Positions 2 to 21,044 of a stretch of 25,844 nt of DNA are shown here, piece by piece. The notes under the pieces are model-generated. The model saw only the letters and a program-made list of their open reading frames with translations, was not told where the DNA came from and ran no database searches. The DNA is from Candidatus Hadarchaeales archaeon (GTDB taxonomy: Archaea; Hadarchaeota; Hadarchaeia; Hadarchaeales; Hadarchaeaceae), in the NCBI GenBank assembly GCA_038851565.1, contig JAWCKV010000009.1:1-25844 (forward strand). The letters are read 5' to 3'. Position numbers and translations under genes: made by a program. Each line of letters starts with the position of its first letter. The first letter of the stretch is position 1.

Positions 2-307
2 GCTGCCTCAATACTCGCGGAAAGGGGATTCGACCATCTTCCGATCGTTGACGACGAGGGAAGGCTCGTGGGAATAGTGACCTCCTGGGACATTGCCATT
101 GCCGTTGGAAAGGGCAGGAGGAGACTGTCCGAGGTCATGACCTCAAAGGTGATCACGGCCAGGGAGGACGAGCCGATAGACGCCGTTGCCAGGAGGCTGG
201 AGACACACAACATATCAGGCGTGCCGGTTGTGGACACTAAAGAGAGGCTGAAGGGCATCCTCACCACAGACGACATATCGAAGCTATTCGGGAGGAGGGG
301 AAGATGA
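2..307 (+). CDS. CBS-pair C-terminus of an MJ0100/MA1821-type (DUF39-CBS) L-aspartate semialdehyde sulfurtransferase (homocysteine synthesis); 5'-truncated by the window edge
   Basis: Frame is open from nt 2: AASILAERGFDHLPIVDDEGRLVGIVTSWDIA...HNISGVPVVD...GILTTDDISKLFG, closely resembling the MJ0100 CBS pair. Stop overlaps the NIL-ferredoxin start (ATGA), the known partner gene. The DUF39 domain lies outside the window and is inferred. Confidence 0.8.
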   Translation, partial: AASILAERGFDHLPIVDDEGRLVGIVTSWDIAIAVGKGRRRLSEVMTSKVITAREDEPIDAVARRLETHNISGVPVVDTKERLKGILTTDDISKLFGRRGR

Positions 308-705
308 CGAGGAAGTTCCTGCTCAGGTATTCAACGCAGAAGGTCTCGGAACCGATCATCGCCTCGGTCATAAAGGAGACCAACGTCCTCCCGAACATAC
401 TGTACGCCGAGCTGGGACCCGCAGGGGGGGAGATACTCATAGCCATAGATGCTCCTGAGCACGAAACCGAGAGAGCGGCGGCGATGTTCAGGGAAAAAGG
501 TGTGGAAATAAGGGAGATAAGGAGGGCGATAGAGCTGGACAGGGACCTGTGCCTTGACTGCGGGGCATGCCTTTCGCTCTGCCCAACAGGAGCGCTCAGG
601 ATGGCACCTGACGGGACGGTGGAGCTCGATGATTCCAAATGTGTGTACTGTGAGCTGTGCGTGCCCTCATGCCCGGTGCGCGCGCTGAAGCTCTCGAGGT
701 TCTAG
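304..705 (+). CDS. NIL-domain + 2x[4Fe-4S] ferredoxin (MA1822-type iron-sulfur subunit of aspartate semialdehyde sulfurtransferase)
   Basis: N-terminal NIL domain (PIIASVIKETNVLPNILYA), then CLDCGACLSLCP and CVYCELCVPSCP motifs; context next to the CBS gene. Confidence 0.9.
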   Translation: MTRKFLLRYSTQKVSEPIIASVIKETNVLPNILYAELGPAGGEILIAIDAPEHETERAAAMFREKGVEIREIRRAIELDRDLCLDCGACLSLCPTGALRMAPDGTVELDDSKCVYCELCVPSCPVRALKLSRF

Positions 706-714
706 GTGATCACC

Positions 715-1497
715 ATGCACTTCCAGAGCTGGACATACAGGGAGACGAGGCTGAACATCAAGTGCGACGAGGAGCGCGCGATAGACGCTGCCATCCATGC
801 CGGAATTCTGGCCAGGGCAGAGGTGGAGAGGTACGTGGGGCTTCATCCGGAGTTCAGGTGGTCCCTCGAGCCAATCGACCTTCCGGGAAGGCACCCTAGG
901 GTGATAGAGCTCATGCTGCGCGCGGGAAAGACCGCAGGAGTTGGACCGTTTGCCGCGGTTGCAGGAGCCATAGCTCAAGTTGCAGCGGAGGCGGCAATAG
1001 AAGCGGGCGCCAGAAATGTGATAGTGGAGAACGGTGGAGATATAGCGATAATGGGCAACAGGGACTTCAGGATAGCCGTCTTTCCTGGACCTTCCATGGA
1101 CGAGAAGAGGATCCCTCTCGGGTTCCACATCAACGCGGGAGATCTGCCCATGGGGATATGCACGAGCTCAGGCACCGTAGGCCATTCAATAAGCTTCGGC
1201 GATGCCGATGCGGTGGTGGTGTTTGCGCGCGAGGCTGCAACCGCAGATGGGGCGGCGACCTCAATCGCCAACGAAGTAAAGGGGAGCTCCAGGGAGGGGC
1301 TGGAGAGGGGACTTCAAAAGGCCGGCGCGATAGGCGGGATCCTGGGGTGCCTCATAATCTACGGCGGAGATGTTGGAAAATGGGGCAGCGTCCCGGAACT
1401 CGTAGAGGTCAGCCCCTCTTCGCAAGAACTCACGAGGAGATGGCACGAGTACAGCACAAGCTATCTTGGAGCAGGCCCTTTTATCACCAGGCGCTGA
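715..1497 (+). CDS. UPF0280 / MA1715-type ApbE-like sulfide assimilation protein
   Basis: GVGPFAAVAGAIA, VIVENGGDIA, GICTSSGTVGHSISFGDADAV motifs. ATG at 715 chosen because GGTGA (705-709) sits 5 nt upstream; alternative GTG at 706. Confidence 0.9.
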   Translation: MHFQSWTYRETRLNIKCDEERAIDAAIHAGILARAEVERYVGLHPEFRWSLEPIDLPGRHPRVIELMLRAGKTAGVGPFAAVAGAIAQVAAEAAIEAGARNVIVENGGDIAIMGNRDFRIAVFPGPSMDEKRIPLGFHINAGDLPMGICTSSGTVGHSISFGDADAVVVFAREAATADGAATSIANEVKGSSREGLERGLQKAGAIGGILGCLIIYGGDVGKWGSVPELVEVSPSSQELTRRWHEYSTSYLGAGPFITRR

Positions 1498-1511
1498 TTA
1501 AAATTGAAACC

Positions 1512-1793
1512 ATGGCGGTCAGGGTGAGATTCTTCGCCAGCGTCAGGGAGGCCGCGGGGAAGCCGGAGGAAAACCTCAGCGGGGTAGTCAGCCTTGCGTC
1601 CCTGCTTGAAGAGCTCGTATCCAGATTTGGGGAAAGGATGGAGGCCGAGCTGTACCAACCCGGAAAAAAGGAGCTCAGGCCTACCATCAACATCCTGCTC
1701 AACGGTAAGGCGCTGAAGCTTCCGGATGACCTGGGCATAAGGATAGATGATGGGGACGAACTGGCGATATTTCCGCCGGTAGCAGGTGGATGA
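1512..1793 (+). CDS. Ubiquitin-like small archaeal modifier protein (SAMP1/MoaD family), 93 aa
   Basis: MAVRVRFFASVREAAG...INILLNG...DGDELAIFPPVAGG-stop; intact C-terminal Gly-Gly. True start is ATG 1512, not 1158. Confidence 0.93.
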   Translation: MAVRVRFFASVREAAGKPEENLSGVVSLASLLEELVSRFGERMEAELYQPGKKELRPTINILLNGKALKLPDDLGIRIDDGDELAIFPPVAGG

Positions 1794-2514
1794 GTTGGAG
1801 AGGTATCTCAGGCAAATCGGGATAAAGGGCTTCGGGAAAGGGGCCCAGAGAAGGCTTGAGAGGTCAGCGGTCCTCGTGGCAGGAGCTGGAGGGCTGGGCA
1901 CCTCCGCTTCAGTTTATCTGGCAGCCGCGGGGGTGGGGAAGCTGACCCTGGTCGACAGCGGAAAAGTTGAGCCCAGCAACCTCAACAGGCAGATACTCCA
2001 CTGGGAGAGCGACATCGGGGCACCGAAGGTCAGGTCGGCCGCCCGGAAGCTGAGGTGCCTAAACCCATCGGTCGAGGTCGAGGGCGTTGAGCGCGGGATC
2101 TCTGAGGAAAACGTGGAAGGGCTGGTTAAGAAAGCTGATGTGGTGGTCGACGGCCTGGACAACTACCGCACGAGATTCATCCTCAACGAGGCATGCGTGA
2201 GGTTTGGGGTCCCTATGGTTCACGGCGCGGTGGAGGGGCTTGATGGCCAGGTCACCACGATACTTCCCGGAAAGGGCCCGTGTTTGAGGTGTATAATTCC
2301 TAAAGAGCCGGGTCAAAAGGGAGAGATCCCGGTCCTGGGGCCAGTGCCCGGAATGATAGGCTGCGCCCAGGCCATGGAGGCAATAAAGCTCATCACAGGC
2401 CTGGGGGTGCCCCTGGTGGGCAGAATGCTCATATTGTCTGGAAGGGAGATGAATTTCGAGGAGATCGAGGTGAGGCGGGATCCAGGGTGCGCGGTCTGCG
2501 GGGGGAAACGGTGA
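1786..2514 (+). CDS. ThiF/MoeB/UbaA family E1-like adenylyltransferase
   Basis: RYLRQI, GAGGLG, SNLNRQIL, DGLDNYRTR, zinc pairs CLRC and CAVC; GTG start overlaps the SAMP 3' end by 8 nt. Confidence 0.93.
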   Translation: MDELERYLRQIGIKGFGKGAQRRLERSAVLVAGAGGLGTSASVYLAAAGVGKLTLVDSGKVEPSNLNRQILHWESDIGAPKVRSAARKLRCLNPSVEVEGVERGISEENVEGLVKKADVVVDGLDNYRTRFILNEACVRFGVPMVHGAVEGLDGQVTTILPGKGPCLRCIIPKEPGQKGEIPVLGPVPGMIGCAQAMEAIKLITGLGVPLVGRMLILSGREMNFEEIEVRRDPGCAVCGGKR

Positions 2515-3722
2515 TGCCAGGGATACCCAAAGAGAGGCTGGAGAAGTACGTCGGGATGAAGAGGGAGGTGAGCGAGGAGAAATACATAAATCTTAACCCC
2601 ATTCAGAGGGGCGGCGTCCTCACCGAGGAGGCAAGGAGGGTCATCGCGGAGTTCGGGGACGGGTATTCAACCTGCGACTGGTGCCCTCCAAAGTCCCCAA
2701 GGCTGGACTCGATCGAACGCCCCCCGATCGCCCAGTTCATGCAGGACCTCGCGGAGTTTCTGGGAATGGACGTCGCAAGGGTCACCACAAGATGCAGGGA
2801 GGCGATATTCATGGCGTTTGCAACCCTTGCGGAGCCAGGCGAGCACATCATAGTCGACAGCCTTGCCCACTACTCCACCTACCTCGCCGCGGAGCTTGCC
2901 AGGGTCAGGGTGAAGGAGGTTCCACACGGCGGATATCCTGAGTTCAGGGTCCAGGTGGACTCCTACGCCCAGAAGATAGAGGAGGTGAAAAGGGAGACCG
3001 GCAGGCTCCCCGCAGCGGCCCTGCTCACCCACGTAGACTACCTCTACGGAAACCTGAACGATGCCGCGATGGTCGGGAAGGTGTGCAGGGAGTACGGCGT
3101 GCCCTTCATACTGAATGCCGCGTACACGGCCGGCGTGATGCCTGTGGATGGAAGGAGGATGAACGTTGATGTTCTCGTCTCAAGCGGCCACAAATCATGG
3201 GCGGCGAGCGCGCCCACTGGAATAATCGCGGTGACGGAGGAGCTGGCAGAACGCGTTCTGGCGCGGTCGAGAATTTCAGGCGACTGGAGCGGGCGAAGGT
3301 TTGAGATGAAGGAATATCCGCTTCTGGGGTGCACGGTGATGGGCGCCCCCCTCATCACCCTCATGGCCTCTTTCCCAGAGGTGGTGAGGAGGGTGGAGAG
3401 GTGGGATGAGGAGGTAGAAAACGCAAGGTATCTCGTGGAGGAGCTGGAGCGGATAGAGGGAACAAAACAGCTCGGCGTGAGGCCAAAGGAACACACGCTG
3501 ATCCACATTGAGTCCGATGGGTTCTTCAGGGCATCACAGGGGCACAGAAGGAAGGGTTACTTCCTGTACGATGAACTGAAGGAGAGGGGGATAGTGGGCA
3601 TACAGCCCGGGCTCACTAAACACTTCAAGCTCAACACGTACGGTCTCGGCAGGGAGAGGGTAAAGAGGGTTGCGGACGCGTTCCTCGATATCGCAGGGAA
3701 AGTCGGTCTCTCGGTGAGCTGA
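2514..3722 (+). CDS. pscS: O-phosphoseryl-tRNA:Cys-tRNA synthase (SepCysS)
   Basis: INLNPIQRGG, GDGYSTCDWC (CxxC), AHYSTY, SGHKSWAAS (PLP lysine), LLGCT, KGYFLYDELKERGIVGIQPGLTKHFKLNTYGL; start ATG 2514 (or GTG 2511) overlaps the E1 stop. Confidence 0.95.
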   Translation: MPGIPKERLEKYVGMKREVSEEKYINLNPIQRGGVLTEEARRVIAEFGDGYSTCDWCPPKSPRLDSIERPPIAQFMQDLAEFLGMDVARVTTRCREAIFMAFATLAEPGEHIIVDSLAHYSTYLAAELARVRVKEVPHGGYPEFRVQVDSYAQKIEEVKRETGRLPAAALLTHVDYLYGNLNDAAMVGKVCREYGVPFILNAAYTAGVMPVDGRRMNVDVLVSSGHKSWAASAPTGIIAVTEELAERVLARSRISGDWSGRRFEMKEYPLLGCTVMGAPLITLMASFPEVVRRVERWDEEVENARYLVEELERIEGTKQLGVRPKEHTLIHIESDGFFRASQGHRRKGYFLYDELKERGIVGIQPGLTKHFKLNTYGLGRERVKRVADAFLDIAGKVGLSVS

Positions 3723-3726
3723 GCCA

Positions 3727-4287
3727 TCAGGCCGCGATTGCCGAGGAGAGCAGGTAGTACAGCCCGGTCACAAAAGATGGGAGGTATATGTAGAGGAGGA
3801 ACCTCTTCCTGAATAGAACCGCGCACGACGCGATGATCGCGGAAACGTTGAACAGGAGCGCGGCAGTGGATCTCAACTCGGAAATGCTGTCGAAAAGGGA
3901 CGTTTGGGACATCGCGTTTTCATATGCATCGGAGTAAAGCACGGCCCTGCCCTCGGCGTTTTCCGCTATCTCGGTGTAGAAGTTTGAGAGCTGAATTGAC
4001 TGATACCACAGGTTCTCAAGGTAGGCCTTGACCTCCAGATTTTCCTCCTTTTCAGAGTAGGCGAGATACATCCCGGCCTGGGTCAGGTAGGACTGCGCCT
4101 GCACCCTGGAGCTTGATGCCTCTGTGACGCACTCCAACCTCAGCATCATGAAACCAAGCGCAGACATCCTGGAGGAGCTCGCCTCACTTCCGGCACCGCC
4201 GGAGGATATCCAGCTTATCGCGGCAAACAGCGATGCGATAGTCACCAGAATCGCTGCCACGTTCGTTATGTCATCTCTTGCCGGCAT
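3727..4287 (-). CDS. Hypothetical membrane protein (N-terminal TM helix, helical loop, two C-terminal TM helices; DUF4337-like architecture)
   Basis: Hydrophobic segments VAAILVTIASLFAAISWI, AALLFNVSAIIASCAVLF and FLLYIYLPSFVTGLYYLL; fills the gap between pscS and engB. Confidence 0.65.
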   Translation of the reverse strand: MPARDDITNVAAILVTIASLFAAISWISSGGAGSEASSSRMSALGFMMLRLECVTEASSSRVQAQSYLTQAGMYLAYSEKEENLEVKAYLENLWYQSIQLSNFYTEIAENAEGRAVLYSDAYENAMSQTSLFDSISELRSTAALLFNVSAIIASCAVLFRKRFLLYIYLPSFVTGLYYLLSSAIAA

Positions 4288-5544: not shown

Positions 5545-5868
5545 TCAAGTTGTGGGCTGGCTGGAGCCCTGGGCCTCCTCGGGAGGAGCCAGCGTCACCT
5601 CGTCCTTGTGCTTGAGCTTTGTGTGTATGCCCCTTATCTGCTGGATCCTCCTCCCGTTCAGCATTATATTGCAGTTATCCCTCAGATCCCCGGTGGTGGG
5701 ATCCAGCACGTCCTCCACCACCTTGGGATACCTCCTGCTCAGCTTCAGAAGGAGCGTGTCCACGGTTTCGTCCTCGGAGATCTTCACCCTTATCGATTCG
5801 GTTCCAGCGCGCTCCTTGAATGACCCATACAGCTTTACCGTTATCTCCATTCCACCACTATCTCTCAT
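5545..5868 (-). CDS. MoaD/ThiS-family ubiquitin-like protein lacking the C-terminal Gly-Gly
   Basis: ITVKLYGSFKERAG...NIMLNGRRI...TKLKHKDEVTLAPP beta-grasp pattern, ending PPEEAQGSSQPTT; alternative start ATG 5850. Confidence 0.82.
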   Translation of the reverse strand: MRDSGGMEITVKLYGSFKERAGTESIRVKISEDETVDTLLLKLSRRYPKVVEDVLDPTTGDLRDNCNIMLNGRRIQQIRGIHTKLKHKDEVTLAPPEEAQGSSQPTT

Positions 5869-5928: not shown

Positions 5929-5983
5929 GCTCCGATTTCCCTCACATTTATTTATCCGGATGATGATGGCAAATGGTGGGCTG

Positions 5984-7159
5984 TTGAAGGTAGTCCTGGC
6001 GTTCAGCGGAGGACTCGACACCCTTGTGGCGATAAAGCTCCTCCAGGAGAAATACGGAGCTGACGTCATCACCCTCTCGGTCGATGTTGGACAGCCTCCT
6101 GAGAGGATGAAGGCGGCTGAAAAGAAGGCCAAGCAGGTTGGGGTGGTGAAGCACGTCAACGTGGATGCCAAGAGGGATTTCGTGGAGAGGTACATCTTCC
6201 CCAGCATACGCGCCAACGGATCATATGAAGGCTATCCTCTCTCCACGGCGCTGGCGAGGTATCCAATAGCAGAAAAGCTTGTTGAGGTCGCCAAGAAGGA
6301 GGGAGCGGAGGCCGTGGCCCATGGCTGCACGGGCAAGGGAAATGACCAGTTCAGATTCGACATCACGGTGAGCACCCTCGCCCCAGATCTCAGGATAATC
6401 GCCCCGATAAGGGAGCTGAATCTCGATAGGACCTGGGAGCGAAAATACGCCAAGGAGAAGGGAATACCACTAGATCCCTGGGGCAAATACAGCATAGATG
6501 AAAACCTGTGGGGACGCTCGATAGAGGGCTCGGACCTTGAGGATCCCCTCCGCCCTCCTTCCGAGGAGATATACAGCTGGACTCGCCCTCCCGAGAGAGC
6601 AATACCTGGCGGCAGGCGCCTGAGGATCTCATTCAAGGAGGGAATACCCGTGGCGCTGGATGGGAGGAACATGGACGGAGTGAGGCTCATCACGACGCTT
6701 AACAGGATTGCGGGGGAAAACGGGGTGGGAAGGATAGAGATGATAGAGGACAGGATACTCGGGATGAAGGCGAGGGAGAACTATGAGGCTCCCGCGGCAA
6801 CCGTCCTCCTCGCTGCGCACCAAGGGCTCGAGCAGCTTGTGCTGACCAAGGACGAGCTGAGCTTCAAAAGGTTTGTGGACAACAGATGGTCGGAGCTCGT
6901 ATATGCCGGGCTGTGGTTCGACCCCCTCAGGGAGGATCTCGATGCCTTTATCTCGGCAACTCAGAGGAGAGTCACGGGCGAGGTGCTCGTTGAACTCTGC
7001 CGCGGCCACTGCCGGGTACTGGCCAGAAAATCCCAGTACTCAATATACGAGAGGAAACTGGCCACGTTTGAGGAATCGGAGTTGGACCAGAGGGAAACCG
7101 TGGGAGTGCTGAAGCTTCACGGGCTCCAGGGCAAAATAGCAAGGAGGAGGATGGTTTGA
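5984..7159 (+). CDS. argG: Argininosuccinate synthase (canonical copy)
   Basis: VVLAFSGGLDT, YPLSTALAR, HGCTGKGNDQFRF, YSIDENLWGRSIEG, IEDRILGMKARENYEAP. TTG 5984 has GGTGG upstream; alternative ATG starts at 5960-5966. Confidence 0.95.
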   Translation: MKVVLAFSGGLDTLVAIKLLQEKYGADVITLSVDVGQPPERMKAAEKKAKQVGVVKHVNVDAKRDFVERYIFPSIRANGSYEGYPLSTALARYPIAEKLVEVAKKEGAEAVAHGCTGKGNDQFRFDITVSTLAPDLRIIAPIRELNLDRTWERKYAKEKGIPLDPWGKYSIDENLWGRSIEGSDLEDPLRPPSEEIYSWTRPPERAIPGGRRLRISFKEGIPVALDGRNMDGVRLITTLNRIAGENGVGRIEMIEDRILGMKARENYEAPAATVLLAAHQGLEQLVLTKDELSFKRFVDNRWSELVYAGLWFDPLREDLDAFISATQRRVTGEVLVELCRGHCRVLARKSQYSIYERKLATFEESELDQRETVGVLKLHGLQGKIARRRMV

Positions 7160-8178
7160 TAAGGGTATCGGTGGTTGGGGCCTCCGGCTACACGGCGGCT
7201 GAGCTGTTCAGAATCCTCTTGACCCACAAGGAAGCAAGGCTTGCGGGAGCATACGCGCTGAAAAACGCGGGAAGGATGGTGAGCGAGGTTCACCCGAGCC
7301 TGAGGGGCATAGTGGACATGAGGATAGAGGATGCTGACTATGACCGCATAGCGGGGGAATCAGATCTGGTCTTTGCGGCCGTGCCACACAAGGTTCCAAT
7401 GAGCTTTGTGCCCCGCCTGCTCAAACACGGCGTGCGCGTGGTGGACCTGAGCGCAGACTACAGGTTTGAGGATGTCTCGGTCTATGAGAGGTACTATGTC
7501 AAACACGAAAGCCCGGACGTAAAGGGCGTCTATGGCCTGCCTGAGCTCCACAGGGAAAAAATAAGAAAGGCCCAGCTGGTGGCCAATCCCGGCTGTTTCC
7601 CCACGGCGGCTGTCCTCTCGCTTGCACCTCTGGTCAAGAAGGGCATCATGGACCTTGACCATATAGTTGTGGACGCAAAGACCGGCACCTCAGGAGCGGG
7701 CGCCACGCCAACCGAGGCCACACACCATCCCACGATAGGCGCGAGCGTGAGGGCATATTCCGCGCTTAGCCACCGGCATGCTCCGGAGATCGATCAGGAG
7801 CTGTCCAAGCTTGCGGGAAGGCCTGTGAAGGTCTCCTTCGTCCCCCACCTGGTACCCATCGTGAGGGGAATACTCTCAACCGCGCACGTGTTCCTCAACA
7901 AAAACCTGGAGAGAGAGGACCTTCTAGAGGAGTACAGAAAGTTCTATGGGGCAGAGCCCTTCGTCAGGGTGGTGGAGGGACTGCCCGAGATCAACTACGT
8001 TCTCGGCTCAAACTACTGCGACATAGGCGTTGCGGTCGACGGCGAGGGCAGGGCAGCTGTGGTAGCTGCAATAGACAACCTTGTCAAGGGGGCTTCGGGC
8101 CAGGCCGTGCAGAACATGAACATAATGTTTGGAATCGATGAAACCGAGGGGCTGAAGGCCGCGCCCCTGCGTCCATGA
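7156..8178 (+). CDS. argC: N-acetyl-gamma-glutamyl-phosphate reductase
   Basis: GASGYTA, DLSADYR, YGLPEL, VANPGCFPT, GTSGAG, IDNLVKGASGQAVQNMN; TTGA overlap with argG. Confidence 0.96.
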   Translation: MIRVSVVGASGYTAAELFRILLTHKEARLAGAYALKNAGRMVSEVHPSLRGIVDMRIEDADYDRIAGESDLVFAAVPHKVPMSFVPRLLKHGVRVVDLSADYRFEDVSVYERYYVKHESPDVKGVYGLPELHREKIRKAQLVANPGCFPTAAVLSLAPLVKKGIMDLDHIVVDAKTGTSGAGATPTEATHHPTIGASVRAYSALSHRHAPEIDQELSKLAGRPVKVSFVPHLVPIVRGILSTAHVFLNKNLEREDLLEEYRKFYGAEPFVRVVEGLPEINYVLGSNYCDIGVAVDGEGRAAVVAAIDNLVKGASGQAVQNMNIMFGIDETEGLKAAPLRP

Positions 8179-8205
8179 AATGCCGATGAGGGAAGTCGAT
8201 CTCAC

Positions 8206-9438
8206 ATGATCACCGTGCTCGAAGGTGGGATAACACTGGTGCCCGGCTTTCTTGCCTCGGGAGTCAGGGCAGGCATAAAAAAGAGGGGCCTGGACCTCAT
8301 GCTCATAGCATGCGAGGATGGACCTGTTGCCGCAGCGGGCGCGTTCACGGGGAACCTCGTGAAGGGCGCACCGGTGGTTGTGACTAGGGGCCACGTGAAA
8401 AATGGATCAATAGGGGCGATAGTTGCAAATTCCGGCATTTCCAACGCGTACACTGGAAAGAGGGGATTGAAGGACGCGCGGAGGATGTGCGCCCTCACAG
8501 CCGAGCTCATGGGTCTCAAACCTGCGCAGGTTGCGGTTGCATCCACCGGGATAATTGGGGTCTATCTGCCGATGAAGAAGATAGAGAAGGGAATAAGGGC
8601 GGCTGCCAAGGAGCTCTCAAATTCAAGAGAGGCCGCGCTGAACGCGGCCAGGGCCATAATGACCACTGACACGTTTCCGAAGGAAGTCGCCATCAGGGTG
8701 GATCTTGAGGACGGAAAATCCGCCACCATAGCTGGCATAGCAAAGGGAGCTGGGATGATAAAGCCGGACCTGAAGACGGCCACCATGCTGAGCTTCGTGG
8801 TCACCGACGTCAACATATCGCCAGACGCGCTCAGGGCGGCGCTTGGCGAGGCGGTCGATCAGAGCTTCAACATGCTCAACATCGACAATGACATGAGCAC
8901 CAGCGACATGGTCATTGTGCTTGCAAACGGCAGGGCTGGCAACCAAAGGATCACACCAGATCGCCCGGACAGGCAGTTCCAGGCCGGCCTCAATTACGTG
9001 CTGCGCGAGCTAGCCTGGATGATAGCCAAGGACGGGGAGGGAGCAACGCACCTGATAGAGGTCAAAGTGAAGGGTGCAAGGAGCGAGGGGGATGCGAGGA
9101 AGGCTGCCAGGGCCGTGGTCGGTTCGAACCTGGTAAAGGCAGCGGTGTTTGGAAAGGATCCAAACTGGGGAAGGGTGATCTCCGCCCTCGGTAGCTCAGG
9201 CGCCTCCTTCAAGCCGGAGAAGATCAGCCTCGAGCTGGCGAGCGAGAGGGGAAGGGTTGATCTGGTCAGGAGAGGGAAGCCGGCTGGCAGGAATGCTCTC
9301 CAAAAGGCCAGGGACATAATGAGGAGCAAGGAGATAGAGATACACGTGGACCTGGGAGCTGGAAAACACAGCGCGACGGCGTGGGGGTGCGACCTCACAT
9401 ATGACTACGTGAGGATCAACTCCCGGTACACAACCTGA
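8206..9438 (+). CDS. argJ: Ornithine acetyltransferase / glutamate N-acetyltransferase
   Basis: VASTGIIG, AIMTTDTFPK, AKGAGMI.P, ATML autocleavage site, KDGEGAT, DPNWGR, WGCDLTYDYVRINSRYTT. Confidence 0.96.
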   Translation: MITVLEGGITLVPGFLASGVRAGIKKRGLDLMLIACEDGPVAAAGAFTGNLVKGAPVVVTRGHVKNGSIGAIVANSGISNAYTGKRGLKDARRMCALTAELMGLKPAQVAVASTGIIGVYLPMKKIEKGIRAAAKELSNSREAALNAARAIMTTDTFPKEVAIRVDLEDGKSATIAGIAKGAGMIKPDLKTATMLSFVVTDVNISPDALRAALGEAVDQSFNMLNIDNDMSTSDMVIVLANGRAGNQRITPDRPDRQFQAGLNYVLRELAWMIAKDGEGATHLIEVKVKGARSEGDARKAARAVVGSNLVKAAVFGKDPNWGRVISALGSSGASFKPEKISLELASERGRVDLVRRGKPAGRNALQKARDIMRSKEIEIHVDLGAGKHSATAWGCDLTYDYVRINSRYTT

Positions 9439-9454
9439 TTGAAACCGAACTCAA

Positions 9455-9470
9455 CCAAATGTTTTTAATC
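9455..9470 (+). promoter_or_regulatory. Possible internal promoter for argB-D-F (or T-run terminator of argG-C-J)
   Basis: CCAAATGTTTTTAATC in the 73-nt argJ-argB gap; GGAGG SD before ATG 9512. Confidence 0.4.
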
Positions 9471-9511
9471 GGCACCCACCACTTTAGCGTTGAGAGGAAG
9501 GAGGCCGCGGG

Positions 9512-10402
9512 ATGGAAGAACGTGCAAAGGTGATGCTCGAGGCCCTGCCGTATCTCCAGGAATTCCACGGAAGGACCATAGTGATAAAGATAGGGGGAAG
9601 CGTCCTCGGCAACGAGGAAATGCTCGATTCCCTGCTGAGGGACGTGGTCCTCCTCAACCTCTTCGGCATGAGGGTGGTCCTCGTTCACGGCGGAGGTCCG
9701 GAGATAAGCGAGGAGATGAAGAAGATGAACATCAAGCCGAAGTTCGTCGAGGGGCTCAGGGTAACCGACGAGAGGACCATAGAGATAATTCACGAGCAGC
9801 TTGCAGGAAAGATAAACAAGCAGCTGGTGCTCGGCATAAACCAGCAGGGCGGGAAGGCCTTCGGGGTCTCAGGCGTGGACGGCAACCTGATAAGGGCGAG
9901 GAAGCTCATCTACAGGACCACCACCAGCAAGGGAAAGGAGATAGAGGTCGACCTGGGGTTCGTGGGCGAGGTTGAGAAGGTGGACCCCACCATCCTGAAC
10001 AACCTGATAAAGAGCGGATGCATTCCAGTTGTCGCCCCCATAGGAGTCGACGGGGAGGGACACAGCCTGAACATAAACGCAGACACCGCAGCGGCGGAGA
10101 TTGCCATAGCCATGAAGGCTAAGAAGCTCATCCTTCTTACCGATGTTTCCGGAGTTCTGAGGGATCCCACAAACGAGTCCACCCTGATATCATCGCTCAC
10201 AGTTGAGGAGGCGCAGAAGCTCATTCAGGAAGGGGTGATAAAGAAGGGCATGATACCCAAGGTGGAAGCCTGCCTCAGGGCAATTCAGGGGGGAGTGGAG
10301 AAGGCCCACATCCTCAAGGGAACCCAGCCCCACGTGCTGCTCCTGGAAATACTCACGAAGACCGGCGTTGGCACGATGATAGAGAAGACGCCGCCCTCCT
10401 GA
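9512..10402 (+). CDS. argB: Acetylglutamate kinase
   Basis: EALPYL, VIKIGG, VHGGGPEI, GLRVTD, NINADTAA, GMIPKV. Confidence 0.96.
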   Translation: MEERAKVMLEALPYLQEFHGRTIVIKIGGSVLGNEEMLDSLLRDVVLLNLFGMRVVLVHGGGPEISEEMKKMNIKPKFVEGLRVTDERTIEIIHEQLAGKINKQLVLGINQQGGKAFGVSGVDGNLIRARKLIYRTTTSKGKEIEVDLGFVGEVEKVDPTILNNLIKSGCIPVVAPIGVDGEGHSLNINADTAAAEIAIAMKAKKLILLTDVSGVLRDPTNESTLISSLTVEEAQKLIQEGVIKKGMIPKVEACLRAIQGGVEKAHILKGTQPHVLLLEILTKTGVGTMIEKTPPS

Positions 10403-10413
10403 GGTGCCATCGC

Positions 10414-11601
10414 TTGAGCAGCGGAACCGTGGAGATGGCCGATCGCTACCTGGCGAACACTTACGGGCGCCAGCGGATAGTTCCGGTGCGCGGCCGCGGC
10501 ATGTTCCTCTGGGATGAAGACGGCAGACGATACATCGACTTTGTGGGTGGGATAGCCGTATGCGTTCTCGGGCATTGCCATCCGGATGTCGCCCGGGCCA
10601 TATCAGCCCAGGCCAGAAAGCTCGTGCACGTGTCAAACCTCTACTACATACCCCAGCAGGCAGAGCTGGCAAGGCTCCTGTCTACCATCTGCCCGAGGCC
10701 TATCTCAAAATTCTTCTTCTGCAACTCAGGAACCGAGGCCATAGAGGGCTCCTTCAAGCTTGCCTTCAAACACAGCAAGAGGAAACGGGTGGTCGCGATG
10801 GAGGGCTCTTTTCACGGGAGAACTTCAGCGGCGGTGGGTGCCACGTGGACCCCAAAATACAGGGAACCCTTCGGCGATCTCATACCCAAGATCTTCACAT
10901 TTGTCCCCTACGATGATCTGGACGCCGCAAGGCAAGCTGTGGATGAGAACACGTCCGCCGTGATCGTGGAGCCCGTGCAGGGGGAAGGGGGAGTGAATGT
11001 TCCATCGGAGGATTACCTCCAGGGATTGCGGGAGATATGCGATGAGAAGGGCGCCCTGCTGATATGCGATGAGGTCCAGAGCGGAATGGGGAGAACCGGA
11101 AGGTGGTTCGCCTGCCAGCACTGGGGCGTGCAGCCGGACATTATCGCCATGGCGAAAGGACTGGGGGGAGGATTTCCAATCGGGTGCTTCGGCTCCACTC
11201 CAGAGATCATGAATTCGTTCTCTCCTGGAGATCATGCATCGACATTCGGCGGAAACCCGCTCGCCTGCGCCGCGGCGATAGCCACCGTTAAAGCCATGAA
11301 AAGGCTGAATATCCCGGGGAGGGCAAATAGGATGGGAAAGTATTTCAGGGGGAGGCTGGAGGAACTAAGAAGGCATGCATCGGTGAGGGATGTGAGGGGG
11401 CTTGGCCTGCTGCTCGGGATGGAGATGAAAAACGGGAAAATCGCGAGGAAGGTCGTGGAGAGGGCGGCGGAGGGGGGCTTTCTCATCAACTGCACGGCCG
11501 AGAAGGTTCTCAGATTCGTGCCGCCACTGATAGTCGAGAAAAAACAAATAGACCAACTGGTTGAGGCGCTTGACGGGATACTAATGAGGGTGGGAGCCTG
11601 A
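10414..11601 (+). CDS. argD: Acetylornithine aminotransferase
   Basis: DFVGGIAV..LGHCHP, NSGTEAIE, FHGRT, EPVQGEGG, DEVQSGMGRTG, AKGLGGG, STFGGNPLA; TTG start with GAGGTG SD. Confidence 0.95.
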   Translation: MSSGTVEMADRYLANTYGRQRIVPVRGRGMFLWDEDGRRYIDFVGGIAVCVLGHCHPDVARAISAQARKLVHVSNLYYIPQQAELARLLSTICPRPISKFFFCNSGTEAIEGSFKLAFKHSKRKRVVAMEGSFHGRTSAAVGATWTPKYREPFGDLIPKIFTFVPYDDLDAARQAVDENTSAVIVEPVQGEGGVNVPSEDYLQGLREICDEKGALLICDEVQSGMGRTGRWFACQHWGVQPDIIAMAKGLGGGFPIGCFGSTPEIMNSFSPGDHASTFGGNPLACAAAIATVKAMKRLNIPGRANRMGKYFRGRLEELRRHASVRDVRGLGLLLGMEMKNGKIARKVVERAAEGGFLINCTAEKVLRFVPPLIVEKKQIDQLVEALDGILMRVGA

Positions 11602-12533
11602 AGCATGTACTTACGATTCAAGACCTGATGGGAGAGGAGATAAATGCCCTCATAAGGAGGGCGAGATCGCTCAAGAGGGAGCTGAAGGCGGGCAGAACAA
11701 GAAATGACCTTAAGGGAAGAACCCTCGCAATGATATTCTCCAAGCCCTCCACGCGCACAAGGGTGAGCTTCGAGGTTGCGATGACTCAGCTGGGAGGACA
11801 CGCAATATACTTGGGGTGGAATGATCTCCAGCTGGGGAGGGGGGAAACAATAGCCGATACGGCCAGGACCCTTTCCAGATACGTTGACTGTGTGGCAGCC
11901 AGGCTCTTCAAACACCGGGAGATTGAGGAGCTGGCTGAGCACTCAACGGTTCCGGTGATAAACGCATTGACGGATCTTCATCACCCATGCCAGACGCTTG
12001 CAGACCTCATGACCATAGAAGAGCACAAGGGGAAACTCAAGGATGTCAAGGTGGCGTGGGTGGGGGATGGAAACAACGTTTGCAACTCCATTCTCCTCGG
12101 CTGCACACTTGTGGGCTCGGACATATCAGTTGCCTGTCCAAAGGGATATGAACCGCCCTCACACATCGTCTCGACCGCCATGGATAACTCTAAGAGGAGC
12201 GGAAGCAGCGTGAAGATAACGAACGAACCCCTCGTTGCGGTAAGGGACGCGGATGTAGTCTACACCGACGTCTTCGTCTCCATGGGCATGGAGGCTGAGA
12301 GGGAGAGGAGGATGCAGGACTTTAGGGGATTTCAGGTGACCCCGGAGCTCATGAATGCCGCAGAGGAGGACGCGATATTCATGCACTGCCTGCCGGCCAG
12401 GCGGGGCGAGGAGGTGAGCGCTGAGGTCATCGACGGTCGCTGGTCGGTCGTCTGGGATCAGGCTGAGAACAGACTCCACGCCCAGAAGGCGCTCCTGCTG
12501 AAGCTAATTGGGAGAGCCACTAAAGCCGCTTGA
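11598..12533 (+). CDS. argF: Ornithine carbamoyltransferase
   Basis: STRTRVSFE, HPCQ, GDGNNV, VSMG, HCLPA. Homology extends upstream of ATG 11628 to a CTG at 11598 (KHVLTIQDL), taken here as the probable start. Confidence 0.95.
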   Translation: MKHVLTIQDLMGEEINALIRRARSLKRELKAGRTRNDLKGRTLAMIFSKPSTRTRVSFEVAMTQLGGHAIYLGWNDLQLGRGETIADTARTLSRYVDCVAARLFKHREIEELAEHSTVPVINALTDLHHPCQTLADLMTIEEHKGKLKDVKVAWVGDGNNVCNSILLGCTLVGSDISVACPKGYEPPSHIVSTAMDNSKRSGSSVKITNEPLVAVRDADVVYTDVFVSMGMEAERERRMQDFRGFQVTPELMNAAEEDAIFMHCLPARRGEEVSAEVIDGRWSVVWDQAENRLHAQKALLLKLIGRATKAA

Positions 12534-13872
12534 GCCTTTCAAAGACCGCAACGAGGCGTCTCTCCTCCGCCAGCAGGGATTTCTTCTCGGAGGAGATCTG
12601 CTTCATCAGCTCCTCTATGCGCAGGTTACCCGGCGCCCCAACATGTTTCTTTGACATTATGTTCTTCACCGGATCTTCCATCTCCAGCCTGTCGAGCTCC
12701 GAGGCCACCTTCCTGTAGGCGTCCCTGAACGGCATCTTCTCTTCCACAACAAGCCTGAGCGCCCGGTCTGCCGCGAAGAGCTCCGGGGTGAATGACCGAA
12801 TGAGGGTCTCCCGGTTCACCTTCAGCTTTTCGAATATCATCCTCATCACCTTCATGCAGTCCTCGGTCACCCTCAGCGCCTCCATCAGCGGCCTCTTTGT
12901 CTCCTGAAAGTCCCTGTTGTAGCCGGAGGGCAGGTTTCTTATGATGAGCAGCAGATGCAGGAGTCTGGCGATGTTCCCTGCCGATCTCGCCCTCACGAGC
13001 TCAAGGGGACAGGGATTCAGCTTCTGGGGCATTATGCTCGATCCGGGGCAGTACTCCCTCGGAAGGGAGAAATATCCGAGCTCAGGTATGCTGAAGAATA
13101 TGAGATCATTGGCCAGCTTTGACAGGTCCTCCGTGATCTGCACGAGCGCGAAAACTATCATCGCCTCGATCTTGCCCCTGCTGTTGTTCGCATAGAGGAC
13201 GTTGTTCTGCACCTTCTCGAATCCCAGGAGGTCGCTCACCATCTGCCTGTCTATGGGCAGGGGGACACCGTAGCTGGCAGCGGATCCGAGCGGGCACTGG
13301 TTGTTCAGGGAGTAAACGGCCTTTATGAGCCTCAGATCATCCATCAGTGACTCAGCAAACGCCCCGGCCCAGAGTCCCACGGAGGAGGGCATGGCGCGCT
13401 GCGTGTGCGTCCTTCCCGGCATGGGGACATCCCTGTTCTCCGAGGCGAACTTCGCGAGCGTCCCGGCCAGCTCCAGCAGCTCGCGCCATATGACAAGCAA
13501 CTCTTTCCTGGAATAGATCCTGATGTCAAGCAGAACCTGATCGTTTCTGGATCTGGCCGTGTGTATCTTTTTTCCCAGACCACCCAGCTTCTTCGTGAGG
13601 TGATTCTCGATGGCGGTGTGCACATCCTCATCCTCCCTCCTTATCTCAAATTTCCCCCTTTCGGCGCCAGACAGTATCTCCAGGAGAGCCCTCTTGAGCC
13701 TCAAGAACTCCTCCCTGCCCAGCACGCCTATCTTGAAGAGCATGCGGGCATGGGCTATGCTTCCGTATACGTCGGCTTCAATGAGTTCACGGTCAAGGAT
13801 GTGGTCATCGCCTACCGTGAACTCCTCCATGAACTCATCAAGATTGTATCCCTTCTCCCAGAGCTTTGGCAT
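12520..13872 (-). CDS. argH: Argininosuccinate lyase
   Basis: EDVH, HTARSRNDQV, MPGRTHTQRA, GSSIMPQKLNP, LPSGYNRDFQETK, PFRDAY. Confidence 0.93.
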   Translation of the reverse strand: MPKLWEKGYNLDEFMEEFTVGDDHILDRELIEADVYGSIAHARMLFKIGVLGREEFLRLKRALLEILSGAERGKFEIRREDEDVHTAIENHLTKKLGGLGKKIHTARSRNDQVLLDIRIYSRKELLVIWRELLELAGTLAKFASENRDVPMPGRTHTQRAMPSSVGLWAGAFAESLMDDLRLIKAVYSLNNQCPLGSAASYGVPLPIDRQMVSDLLGFEKVQNNVLYANNSRGKIEAMIVFALVQITEDLSKLANDLIFFSIPELGYFSLPREYCPGSSIMPQKLNPCPLELVRARSAGNIARLLHLLLIIRNLPSGYNRDFQETKRPLMEALRVTEDCMKVMRMIFEKLKVNRETLIRSFTPELFAADRALRLVVEEKMPFRDAYRKVASELDRLEMEDPVKNIMSKKHVGAPGNLRIEELMKQISSEKKSLLAEERRLVAVFERLKRL

Positions 13873-13873
13873 C

Positions 13874-15106
13874 TCACTTCACTCGTTTTCTCATTGCGAG
13901 TACCTGATAAATAAGACCACCTATGTGGGCAGCCCCCCTTGACATGCGCTGATCGAATCCCTTTGCCTTTATCGACCTGAGCTCGGGAGCGAAAAGCCCG
14001 GTGTTTGACCTTCTCCTCATTATCTCTATCGTTCCCTTGTACAGCTTTACCCTGTACTCCCCCTCCACATGCCTCTGTGATTCGTTTATGAAGGCCTCCA
14101 GCTCGTACCTCAGCGGGTGAAACGCCTGTCCGTGATACATCATGTAGGCCCACTTCTGGTCAACCATCTTCTTGAACATCAGCTCGTCCTTGGTGAGGCA
14201 GAACTGCTCGAGGTCCCTGTGAAGGGCCAGTATCACGTGCGCTGCTGGCGCCTCATAGATTTCCCTTGATTTCAGGTTCATTATTCCGTCCTCGAACATG
14301 TCTATCCTGCCGATGCCGTTCTCCCCTGCGATGTAGTTCAGGCGGTAGACTATGTCGAAGAGGGGAAGCCTTTCGCCGTTCAACTTAACCGGTACGCCCT
14401 CCTTGAATTCAATCTCCACCACGGTGGGCTCGTCCTTCGCCTTCTCCGGTGGCTTGAGCCACATCCATATGTCATCAGGCAGCTCCTGATCCAGGTCCAC
14501 GGCCCCGCTGGCTATAGATCTGCACCACAGCGTCTTGTCGTCCCCGCCGGTTATCGTCTGGACCATGGGCACGCCCCATGCCCTGCAGAGCTCCTCTTCC
14601 TCCCTCCTCGTGAGGTCGAAATCCCTCACAGGGACCAGTATCTCAAGGCCGGGCGCGAACATCGTGAAGACGTTGTGCATCCTGAACTGGTCATTGCCCT
14701 TTCCACTGCTCCCCTCCAGAAGCGCGTCGCATCCAAGCTCGACCGCCTTCTCCGCGACCTTCCTGGCTATCAGCTGCCTCGTCATAGATGTGGACACCGG
14801 ATAGCCCTCGTAGTCTGAGTTTGCCTTTATTGCCATCGCTATCCACTCATTCGCAAACTCCTCCCTCGCATCGATGAAGATGGGCTTTACCCCGAGCGCC
14901 TCCCCGTGCCTCCGCGCCACCTCGAGCTCCTGTTCGCCCTGCCCCACATCCACTGTTATGGGAACTATCTCCTCAGCCCTGTACTTGCGCTTCAGGAGCT
15001 CTATCCCCAGGCTGGAGTCGACCCCTCCTGAAAACGCACATGCGACCTTCCTGACCTTCGGCACAGGCGCGCTCTCGATTTTTCTTATGATTTCCTCGAC
15101 GCTCAT
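13874..15106 (-). CDS. argG: Argininosuccinate synthase paralog (divergent second copy)
   Basis: AFSGGVDSS, YPVSTS, GSSGKGNDQFR, KSREIYEAPAA; stop lies 1 nt before the argH ATG. Confidence 0.88.
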   Translation of the reverse strand: MSVEEIIRKIESAPVPKVRKVACAFSGGVDSSLGIELLKRKYRAEEIVPITVDVGQGEQELEVARRHGEALGVKPIFIDAREEFANEWIAMAIKANSDYEGYPVSTSMTRQLIARKVAEKAVELGCDALLEGSSGKGNDQFRMHNVFTMFAPGLEILVPVRDFDLTRREEEELCRAWGVPMVQTITGGDDKTLWCRSIASGAVDLDQELPDDIWMWLKPPEKAKDEPTVVEIEFKEGVPVKLNGERLPLFDIVYRLNYIAGENGIGRIDMFEDGIMNLKSREIYEAPAAHVILALHRDLEQFCLTKDELMFKKMVDQKWAYMMYHGQAFHPLRYELEAFINESQRHVEGEYRVKLYKGTIEIMRRRSNTGLFAPELRSIKAKGFDQRMSRGAAHIGGLIYQVLAMRKRVK

Positions 15107-20027: not shown

Positions 20028-21044
20028 ATGAAAAAGATCGCTGTGGGGGGCGGGGAGATCTCAGTAAGCCCCCTTGCCTTCGAAAGCCTTGGAGTCAGGG
20101 GGATGTCCACCCTCGTGGAAACGCGAGACATCAGCGTTCTGATAGATCCGGGCTCTGCGCTTGGCCCCAGGTTCAACCTCATGCCCCATGAAAGGGAATA
20201 TGCCGCGCTGTCAGAGTCCAGGGAGAGAATGCTCGAGGCGGCGGGGAGCGCTGACCTGATCACCGTGAGCCACTATCATTTTGACCACTATGTGCCAGGA
20301 TTTGAGGAGTGGACCTGGATATGGAGCTCCCCGGAAATCGCGGAGCGGATCTACCGCGGGAAGAGGATGCTCGTCAAGGACATACGCTCCGAGATAAACA
20401 TCAGCCAGAGAAAGAGGGGGTTCATGTTCCAAAAGTTCGTCACCAGTTTGGCGCAGGACATCGAGCCGGCCGACGGAAGGGAGTTCAGGTTCGGAGGCAC
20501 TCTCCTGCGTTTTTCGCCTCCAGCCTCCCACGGCCCGCCGGGAACCCAGCTGGGCCGGGTCCTCATGGTGAGCATAAGGTGTGGCGAAACGACCTTCCTG
20601 CACGCCTCGGACGTTCAGGGGCCCATTGACAGGGCGGCGCTTGACTTCATCCTGAGGGAAAAGCCAGACATGGCAGTAATAGGAGGACCCCCGCTATACC
20701 TCAGGGGATTCAGGGTGGGAGAGGAGGAGCTGGGATCCGCAATTGAGAACATGAAGGTCCTGGCCAGAACCATTCCGCTCATTGTTATAGACCACCACCT
20801 TCTCAGGACCGAAGAGTACGTTGACTACATGGGACCTGTGGTCAAAGAGGCCAGATCTCACGACCACACGATCACCACGGCCTCAGAGATGGTGGGAAAA
20901 AGGCCAGCGCTCCTTGAGGCGAACAGAAAGCAGCTTTACGCCAGGGAGCCGATGGAAAGCGGGAGCATGAAGCACATCAGGGAACTCATGATAAGGCTTG
21001 GCGCTACATCCTCTCAGGAGCGGGTATCCCCAGAAGGTCCATGA
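20028..21044 (+). CDS. UPF0282-family metallo-beta-lactamase fold hydrolase
   Basis: PLAFESLGVRGM, IDPGSALGPRF, SHYHFDH, HASDVQGP, GGPPLYL, IDHHLLR. Confidence 0.88.
   Translation: MKKIAVGGGEISVSPLAFESLGVRGMSTLVETRDISVLIDPGSALGPRFNLMPHEREYAALSESRERMLEAAGSADLITVSHYHFDHYVPGFEEWTWIWSSPEIAERIYRGKRMLVKDIRSEINISQRKRGFMFQKFVTSLAQDIEPADGREFRFGGTLLRFSPPASHGPPGTQLGRVLMVSIRCGETTFLHASDVQGPIDRAALDFILREKPDMAVIGGPPLYLRGFRVGEEELGSAIENMKVLARTIPLIVIDHHLLRTEEYVDYMGPVVKEARSHDHTITTASEMVGKRPALLEANRKQLYAREPMESGSMKHIRELMIRLGATSSQERVSPEGP

Follow-up and report, generated by a model that had tools for sequence, protein, structure and literature searches.

The 25,844-nt contig JAWCKV010000009.1 of a Candidatus Hadarchaeales archaeon (contig C9 of the assembly, hereafter the window) opens with a run of six genes at positions 2–3722, in which the genes of a ubiquitin-like (Ubl) sulfur carrier, SAMP, and of its activating enzyme, E1, are placed between genes of sulfide assimilation and pscS, which encodes SepCysS, a Sep-tRNA:Cys-tRNA synthase. 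We read this pair, with a probability of about one half, as the cell's general MoaD/SAMP1–UbaA system housed in a sulfide-assimilation operon, and not as a pair dedicated to the cysteine pathway. This reading is carried by the orthology of the SAMP with MoaE-linked carriers and by the finding that the E1 is the only one detected in the genome, and it has to be weighed against a widespread linkage of E1 and pscS genes. Relatives are given by genome (G) and locus (L) numbers where they need to be told apart.

The operon and its genes

The sequence-only reading had described six co-oriented genes that overlap or abut, and the open reading frame (ORF) coordinates and profile matches bore out the layout and the named families, with UPF0280 staying below its curated cut-off:

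2–307, + strand: CBS pair, the tail of a DUF39(HcyBio)-CBS gene of the MA1821/MJ0100 type, 5′-open at the contig end
304–705, + strand: NIL domain with 2×[4Fe-4S] ferredoxin, MA1822 type, in ATGA overlap with the CBS gene
706–1497, + strand: UPF0280/COG2122 protein of the MA1715 type, a distant ApbE relative, with a GTG start right behind the TAG stop
1512–1793, + strand: SAMP, 93 aa, ThiS/MoaD fold, MoaD/SAMP1 orthogroup, with a 14-nt gap upstream and the C-terminus ...FPPVAGG
1786–2514, + strand: E1 of the ThiF/MoeB/UbaA type, 242 aa, without a rhodanese domain, starting at a GTG that lies 8 nt within the SAMP gene
2514–3722, + strand: SepCysS (pscS), Sep-tRNA:Cys-tRNA synthase, whose ATG overlaps the stop codon of E1 by one base

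Alternative starts are an in-frame TTG at 1795 for E1, and GTGs at 2511 and 2487 for SepCysS. As the next gene (3727–4287) lies on the opposite strand, convergent to pscS, the operon ends at pscS. The translational overlaps among the six genes indicate selection for co-expression.

Based on profile and homology searches, the identities of the CBS, NIL-ferredoxin, ThiS/MoaD, ThiF and SepCysS products are solid. The CBS tail scored 92 bits with the Pfam CBS model, and its segment (2–307) is 64–79% identical to the C-termini of ORFs of 499–504 aa in relatives; because the relatives' full-length 504-aa DUF39-CBS ORFs carry PF01837 (HcyBio) at 493–500 bits, the segment is assigned as the tail of a DUF39(HcyBio)-CBS gene. 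The DUF39 part was found nowhere else in the assembly by tblastn with the relatives' protein; the window begins at the contig end, and a Logan contig of sequencing run X1 extends 914 nt further upstream. The NIL-ferredoxin matched PF09383 (NIL, 38.8 bits) and Fer4 (54 bits), and its same-position orthologues in relatives are 47–85% identical. The UPF0280 product aligned with NCBIfam PRK04334.1-4 over residues 7–242 of 263 aa (E 1.8e-67; 227.6 bits, below the curated 275) and with Pfam ApbE at just 16.6 bits, and its Cys152 and Cys215 are kept in 100% and 97% of 34 orthologues, respectively.

The SAMP scored 56.2 bits with PF02597 ThiS (cut-off 22.5), 69.5 with TIGR01687 moaD_arch (cut-off 49.5) and 63.5 with NF041918 SAMP1 (cut-off 60), and its Gly-Gly (GG) stands immediately before the TGA stop (...FPPVAGG-TGA) and is invariant in 41 aligned sequences. 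E1 matched PF00899 ThiF at 242.7 bits over residues 7–236, with Cys166, Cys169, Cys235 and Cys238 invariant in 42 sequences; from MoeB/ThiF structures we take this CxxC...CxxC tetrad to be a zinc site. Since E1 stayed below every NCBIfam equivalog cut-off, i.e. MoeB PRK08762 (279.3 versus 449), PRK05690 (248.3 versus 266), UbaA (247.8 versus 450) and ThiF TIGR02356 (217 versus 275), it is named at the family level only. SepCysS exceeded TIGR02539 (502.3 bits, cut-off 365.25) and PRK09331 (556.9, cut-off 301), and its Cys54, Cys57 and Cys273 and the pyridoxal phosphate (PLP) lysine in S224-G-H-K227-S are invariant in 64 aligned sequences.

A frameshift error splitting a fused SAMP-E1 gene was ruled out, as independent contigs of two studies (X1 record 2, 325–2634; X4 record 21, 1604–2251) bridge the junction gap-free, with no insertion or deletion listed there in either. 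The stop after the SAMP GG is also present in the closest relatives, L037 and G001 (the G001 SAMP open frame has 97 aa). The stretch is carried by 8 DNA sequencing runs, hot-spring metagenomes from two studies, and by no RNA sequencing run among those listed.

The carrier and the E1 within the genome

The sequence-only reading had counted a grouping of this SAMP with those of molybdopterin or tungsten cofactor synthesis as evidence against its proposal, and such a grouping was found. A hidden Markov model (HMM) built from the locus SAMPs recovered the same ...AIFPPV(S/A)GG proteins in three contexts, namely between COG2122 and E1-pscS, in SAMP-E1-MoaE operons (G003, G005, G007 and G012; L094), and in MoaD-MoaE pairs (G002, G011, G018, G023, G024, G026, G027, G033 and G036), with the MoaE-linked MoaD/SAMPs of relatives matching at E values of 1e-30 to 1e-40. 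In the SAMP tree, those of the pscS operons, the window's included, intermix with those of SAMP-E1-MoaE (L119–L122, L094) and MoaD-MoaE loci (L128–L136): the window's SAMP stands beside L037 inside this mixed orthogroup, and L120 from a MoaE operon (G012) groups with L014/L055 from the pscS operon of G019, a member of the same genus. The placement of the gene is complementary as well. Where E1 has no SAMP beside it at pscS (G023, G011, G018, G024), a MoaD-type SAMP adjoins MoaE; where the SAMP sits in the pscS operon (this genome, G001, G009, G021), none was found beside MoaE among the matches listed (150 of 168). This indicates one MoaD/SAMP1-type carrier with a mobile gene.

The assembly, a small-genome Hadarchaeota metagenome-assembled genome (MAG) whose close relatives are Hadarchaeota (Hadesarchaea) MAGs, comprises 823 kb in 50 contigs and is 86.7% complete. 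The operon E1 is its one ThiF-family match over cut-off. Three ThiS-family genes were found: the operon SAMP, a GG-less paralogue at 5545–5868 (−), and SAMP2 on contig C29, a 74-aa product ending ...VVTGG whose gene overlaps an NcsA/TtuA-like PP-loop gene. Contig C23 carries MoaE, close to a ThiI-like gene and without an adjoining SAMP, and the genome holds no GG-ended MoaD-type SAMP for it besides that of the operon. Given this and the operons of its orthologues, the window's SAMP most likely partners MoaE. It had been remarked that no MoaE, ThiI/NcsA or AOR gene lies in the window, which is right for the window but misleads for the genome (MoaE and ThiI-like on C23, NcsA-like and SAMP2 on C29), so that the pair does not lack other explanations: being the sole E1, the enzyme must serve MoaE and the NcsA-linked SAMP2 too, and no fewer than two of its conventional clients are thus encoded away from the operon.

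At the MoaE locus itself (L006, G000:C23:11571–14903), the gene of the 139-aa MoaE overlaps by 4 nt the gene behind it, which encodes a radical-SAM protein of 363 aa, and TBP and a ThiI-like THUMP protein are encoded nearby, again with no MoaD adjoining. The gene at 5545–5868 (−) is a second SAMP1/MoaD-like gene (SAMP1 model, 65.2 bits) whose product ends ...LAPPEEAQGSSQPTT; because the C-terminal GG is missing, this product is no E1 substrate as it stands. In relatives, its orthologues (64–87% identity) are found at a distance of a few kb from pscS and are mostly GG-less, that of L039 (10382–10666) ending ...AGGV.

SepRS is encoded on C3 (TIGR00470, 557.7 bits; cut-off 380.65), and since no CysRS in the genome reaches the cut-off (best match 34 bits versus 340), SepCysS looks like the sole route to Cys-tRNA(Cys). 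By tblastn with the relatives' proteins, an IscS-like gene was located on C1 and a ThrC-like gene on C4, and no TusA, JAMM or DUF169 gene was detected in the genome, two Hadarchaeota queries being used for JAMM.

According to sections of Price et al. (PMC5764234), DUF39, NIL-ferredoxin and COG2122 have been tied genetically to sulfide-dependent homocysteine synthesis in Desulfovibrio vulgaris and M. acetivorans, and COG2122 was proposed to help persulfide formation on DUF39 and SepCysS. For the general-system reading, we infer the following steps of sulfur transfer. The region would be the 3′ two-thirds of a Hadarchaeota sulfide-assimilation operon, in which DUF39-CBS and NIL-ferredoxin would convert aspartate semialdehyde and sulfide into homocysteine, UPF0280/COG2122 would help to capture or relay sulfide, and SepCysS would make Cys-tRNA(Cys) from Sep-tRNA(Cys), by what seems to be the sole route open to the cell. 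E1 would adenylate the GG end of SAMP, which would then be thiocarboxylated and most likely serve the molybdopterin/tungstopterin synthase subunit MoaE from the other contig, and the same E1 would activate SAMP2 for tRNA 2-thiolation. The three acceptors SAMP-AMP, SepCysS and DUF39 would all take up sulfide-derived sulfur, and this could account for both the placement of the pair in the operon and its co-expression. As E1 is without a rhodanese domain, sulfur is likely to come to all of them from COG2122 (from TusA or an IscS/SufS-like gene in relatives), which would probably charge SAMP.

Linkage of the E1 gene to pscS

The adjacency of E1 and pscS extends beyond one genome, as a neighbourhood survey confirmed. 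In an order-level set of 41 genomes, pscS was found in 39 and E1 in 34, and 34 genomes had both; the two genes lie within 500 bp in 18 of these 34, within 5 kb in 23 and within 10 kb in 26, and E1 is within 500 bp of MoaE in nine of the same genomes. By our own arithmetic, the chance of a placement within 5 kb in a ~1-Mb genome is ~1%, kin not being independent and the counts therefore descriptive. A second set, one genome per species, comprised the best 80 of 354 pscS relatives, only 49 of the 80 loci having 2 kb or more of flank on each side. In 34 of these 80 loci, E1 and pscS are no more than 500 bp apart, and in 42 no more than 4 kb, in six or more archaeal lineages. The loci with E1 within 4 kb are distributed as follows:

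Hadarchaeota: 28 of 42 loci
Methanomethylicia-like: nine of 10 loci
Hydrothermarchaeota: the one locus (1/1)
Sifarchaeum: the one locus (1/1)
Thermoprotei: the one locus (1/1)
Bathyarchaeia: one of 14 loci
Nezhaarchaeales: none of four loci
Hecatellales: none of three loci

The gene orders are varied, and about ten architectures were distinguished:

COG2122-SAMP-E1-pscS, as in the window
COG2122-E1-pscS
pscS-E1
pscS-E1-TusA accompanied by JAMM (L053, Ca. Hadarchaeum yellowstonense)
E1-TusA-pscS-DUF169-thioredoxin (L092)
E1 and pscS in divergent orientation (Methanomethylicia, Sifarchaeum)
PP-loop-E1-IscS divergent from HTH/CBS-pscS-ThiI (L073)
PP-loop-E1-SAMP-ThrC-like divergent from pscS (L081)
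ThrC-like-[SAMP-E1]-TusA, with a second pscS paralogue and DUF169 in divergent orientation (e.g. L088)
NIL-ferredoxin and pscS with a divergent ThiF-like gene of the PRK08223 type between them (L007/L105)

Sulfur-relay genes recur beside E1/pscS, i.e. TusA (L053, L092 and others), IscS-like (L073) and SufS-like (L010) genes, ThiI and PP-loop ATPases, and DUF169 adjoins pscS in relatives. Five genomes of other phyla were checked, and in four of them the E1 beside pscS is the genome's only one; MoaE is on other contigs and the SAMPs are elsewhere, except for a short SAMP beside E1 in G045. That the pscS-adjacent E1 of these phyla is a dedicated extra paralogue was ruled out on the same count.

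Several points here weigh against the general-system reading. The sole E1 adjoins pscS oftener than it adjoins MoaE or any Ubl gene, in about ten gene orders and several phyla, a pattern to be expected if E1 were directly linked in function to SepCysS. In G004 (87% complete) and G040 (82%), E1 stands beside pscS and no MoaE was found, so cofactor synthesis through MoaE gives no reason for its placement there. At 86.7% completeness, a second E1 or a MoaE-linked MoaD of our genome could be unassembled. Finally, we know of no experiment that ties COG2122, TusA or sulfide to archaeal SAMP thiocarboxylation.

The first of these points argues for an alternative that we regard as possible but doubtful, in which SAMP, once adenylated by E1, would be turned into a thiocarboxylate (SAMP-COSH) by sulfide, perhaps via COG2122, and would pass its sulfur on to SepCysS, at the three-cysteine/Fe-S site, and/or to DUF39; the SAMP may serve MoaE too. 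The E1-pscS linkage has been kept yet rearranged many times, and brings the two genes within 500 bp in nine of the 10 Methanomethylicia-like loci; another type of E1 accompanies a second pscS paralogue and, in L097 and L101, shares one operon with DUF39, NIL-ferredoxin and COG2122; and the sole E1 of four of the five other-phylum genomes stands by pscS and not by MoaE. In sections of Mukai et al. (PMC5424206), SepCysS is reported with an Fe-S cluster and persulfide-forming cysteines, the latter invariant here. By analogy, the carrier could act as TtuB/SAMP2 does in feeding the Fe-S cluster of TtuA/NcsA, or as CysO does in feeding CysM.

On the other side, the SAMP is a MoaD orthologue that shifts between pscS and MoaE within a genus, and it is dispensable for the linkage, many E1-pscS pairs having no adjoining SAMP. 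The linkage is rare in the Bathyarchaeia and absent from the Nezhaarchaeales loci, many of whose flanks are short, and G010 (95% complete) and G022 (92%) keep pscS with no E1 detected. SepCysS moreover functions in the methanogens M. jannaschii, M. kandleri and M. aeolicus, reported by Makarova and Koonin (PMC2948915) to be without Ubl proteins and the arCOG1676 E1. A predicted complex of the SepCysS dimer with SAMP scored 0.00 against a mark of 0.32, and this value, obtained without controls, is evidence neither way. As for the proposal that SAMP and E1 are tied to the cysteine/homocysteine operon, the conserved linkage of E1 to pscS and to DUF39/COG2122 upholds part of it, and the membership of the SAMP in the MoaD orthogroup speaks against a dedicated carrier. 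The E1-pscS linkage is thus compatible with thiocarboxylate donation to SepCysS, without being proof of it. A broader version can be put forward only tentatively: the single E1 might be the entry of sulfur to tRNA-dependent cysteine synthesis in Hadarchaeota, Methanomethylicia, Hydrothermarchaeota and some other archaea, a Ubl thiocarboxylate (aided by COG2122/TusA) acting as the donor for SepCysS and perhaps DUF39, and feeding molybdopterin synthase as well.

The linkage might also be without function, with an E1-pscS block hitch-hiking on horizontal transfer of pscS and operon membership an accident of insertion. The SepCysS proteins sampled from other phyla are 54–71% identical to the window's (among the best 80 of 354) and may form one SepCysS clade, as such transfer would have it. 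However, gene order, orientation and intervening genes vary among lineages, two different E1 types are involved, the neighbour is the sole, presumably native, E1 in most of the other-phylum genomes checked, and the translational overlaps in the window speak for co-expression, which makes this account improbable.

The sulfur supply of SepCysS in vivo is a long-standing question, and the operon together with its rearranged relatives makes it testable, the sole E1 standing next to pscS more consistently than next to any accepted E1 client. To learn whether SAMP-COSH feeds SepCysS, or whether COG2122 or TusA charges SAMP-AMP, would close a gap in the understanding of anaerobic sulfur assimilation. 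Should the pair be only the general MoaD/UbaA system, these small-genome archaea would still be seen to gather all their sulfide-accepting reactions in one transcription unit.

Some relatives depart from these patterns. In G010 (9 contigs), no MoaE was detected, and a SufS-family desulfurase-like gene (L010:115–1320; 442 bits, cut-off 475) lies directly upstream of pscS. In L007:618–1475 (= L105:6872–7795), a divergent ThiF-like protein replaces COG2122-SAMP-E1 between NIL-ferredoxin and pscS; its best model is PRK08223 (120 bits), it has no CxxC pairs by eye, the Hadarchaeota family to which it belongs comes with MoaE in none of three genomes, and the L007/L105 genome carries a canonical SAMP-E1 elsewhere. 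Among the Methanomethylicia, an 86-aa ORF without a family match abuts pscS (L109:7738–7998), and one pscS has an N-terminal extension (L067:7869–9200, 443 aa); the ORF and the extension may be candidates for the SepCysSn/SepCysSN helper of Mukai et al.

Fused carriers, related systems and neighbouring genes

In 17 ORFs of relatives, SAMP and E1 are fused in frame, and the junction retains the GG (...PPVSGG|KLTP.ELKRY...). The window's E1 type accounts for thirteen of them (L014, L023, L028, L045, L047, L050, L051, L054, L055, L077, L086, L094 and L103) and the second type for four (L088, L090, L093 and L095), some loci being the same genome fetched twice. Of the eight fused loci among the 80, six have a JAMM/MPN+ protease gene convergent to pscS, and one more is truncated at that place; none of the seven unfused loci of the window's type has such a gene there. 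This suggests that JAMM frees the fused carrier. The pattern, and the separate, JAMM-less genes of the window's genome, fit a need for a free GG end, and support a true carrier role of the SAMP.

The same correlation bears on a regulatory role, in which sulfur assimilation would be tuned by sampylation of SepCysS, DUF39 or COG2122 through SAMP and E1, much as SAMP1 conjugation inhibits molybdopterin synthase in Haloferax. The GG end of the SAMP is free, and Ubl processing machinery belongs to the cluster in relatives. Regulation of molybdopterin synthase by HvJAMM1 and SAMP1 has been published (PMC4443979). Nevertheless, the two JAMM queries found no homologue in this genome, the correlation is explained more simply by the freeing of the GG of fused SAMPs, and nothing points to specific targets; we regard such regulation as very unlikely.

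The second E1 type travels with the second pscS paralogue near a ThrC-like enzyme, TusA and JAMM. This second cluster (L088:3100–10200; also L090, L093, L095, L097 and L101, all Hadarchaeota) contains a threonine-synthase-like PLP enzyme (PRK08197, 310 bits), the SAMP-E1 fusion and TusA, with JAMM nearby, and is divergent from the second pscS paralogue (~55% identical), which is followed by DUF169. In L097 and L101, a second-type SAMP-E1-TusA precedes co-oriented DUF39-CBS, NIL-ferredoxin and COG2122 in one operon. The second cluster looks like a protein-thiocarboxylate route to homocysteine or cysteine.

Such protein-thiocarboxylate routes to amino acids include those of Wolinella HcyS and Streptomyces MetM/MetO. 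We are aware of no thiocarboxylate donor for SepCysS, a fold-type-I, tRNA-dependent PLP enzyme. In the CysO-CysM-Mec+-MoeZR system of M. tuberculosis, a Ubl thiocarboxylate feeds an amino-acid-forming PLP enzyme, and one E1 serves both molybdenum cofactor and cysteine synthesis, as sections of PMC3227635 state for mycobacterial MoeZR and the CysO-dependent pathway. The second clusters of relatives, with ThrC-like, SAMP-E1, TusA and JAMM genes, resemble CysO/CysM-type routes, whereas the window's operon has a fold-type-I, tRNA-dependent PLP enzyme instead, and a profile search found neither a CysM/ThrC-type partner nor a JAMM protease in the window.

The general-system reading has its closest counterparts in SAMP1/UbaA/MoaE of Haloferax volcanii and UblA/UblB of Thermococcus kodakarensis, where one rhodanese-less E1 likewise serves several GG-ended carriers for molybdopterin/tungstopterin synthesis and tRNA thiolation; in T. 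kodakarensis, the Ubls serve the tungsten cofactor and tRNA thiolation redundantly, according to parts of PMC11323500. The window's SAMP passes the SAMP1 and moaD_arch models. Unlike here, H. volcanii and T. kodakarensis have no SepCysS, and the window's E1 falls short of the UbaA cut-off and has pscS as its conserved neighbour. MA1821/MA1822, MA1715 and SepCysS of M. acetivorans and DUF39/NIL-ferredoxin/COG2122 of Desulfovibrio belong to the same families as the window's proteins, for COG2122 probably so, the likeness to the MA proteins being one of family and not of direct alignment. In contrast to Methanosarcina and Desulfovibrio, all four families are united here in one operon, with a Ubl and an E1 between COG2122 and pscS, and neither SAMP nor E1 is part of the published model for those organisms.

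A thiF-pscS neighbourhood is already drawn in print: in Fig. S2 of Mukai et al. 2017 (mBio, PMC5424206), 'thiF' labels appear among the SepCysS clade VII loci, those of Hadesarchaea DG-33-1 and of an MSBL1 archaeon being part of the set, the assignment of labels to loci in the figure as available being uncertain. The accessible main text of that paper calls the SepCysS mechanism not fully elucidated, and contains no mention of ThiF, MoaD, ubiquitin or a sulfur carrier and no claim on the sulfur donor. The available portions of PMC8762117 and PMC5688128 hold nothing relevant on a sulfur donor or persulfide, and within the open full-text literature, subscription papers lying outside this coverage, no statement of a thiocarboxylate or SAMP donor role for SepCysS was found. 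The component families are known; a sole E1 that is systematically linked to pscS in several phyla, with the insertion of SAMP-E1 between COG2122 and pscS, is an undescribed variant.

Downstream of the operon, the convergent gene at 3727–4287 (−) encodes a 186-aa ORF with no Pfam or NCBIfam match, and L008 has an ORF of 33% identity at the corresponding position behind pscS-E1. An arginine-biosynthesis cluster follows at 5960–15106, with argG, argC, argJ, argB, argD and argF on the + strand, and an argH-like gene and a second argininosuccinate synthase copy (13874–15106) on the − strand; ArgRS is encoded at 21004–22863 (−).

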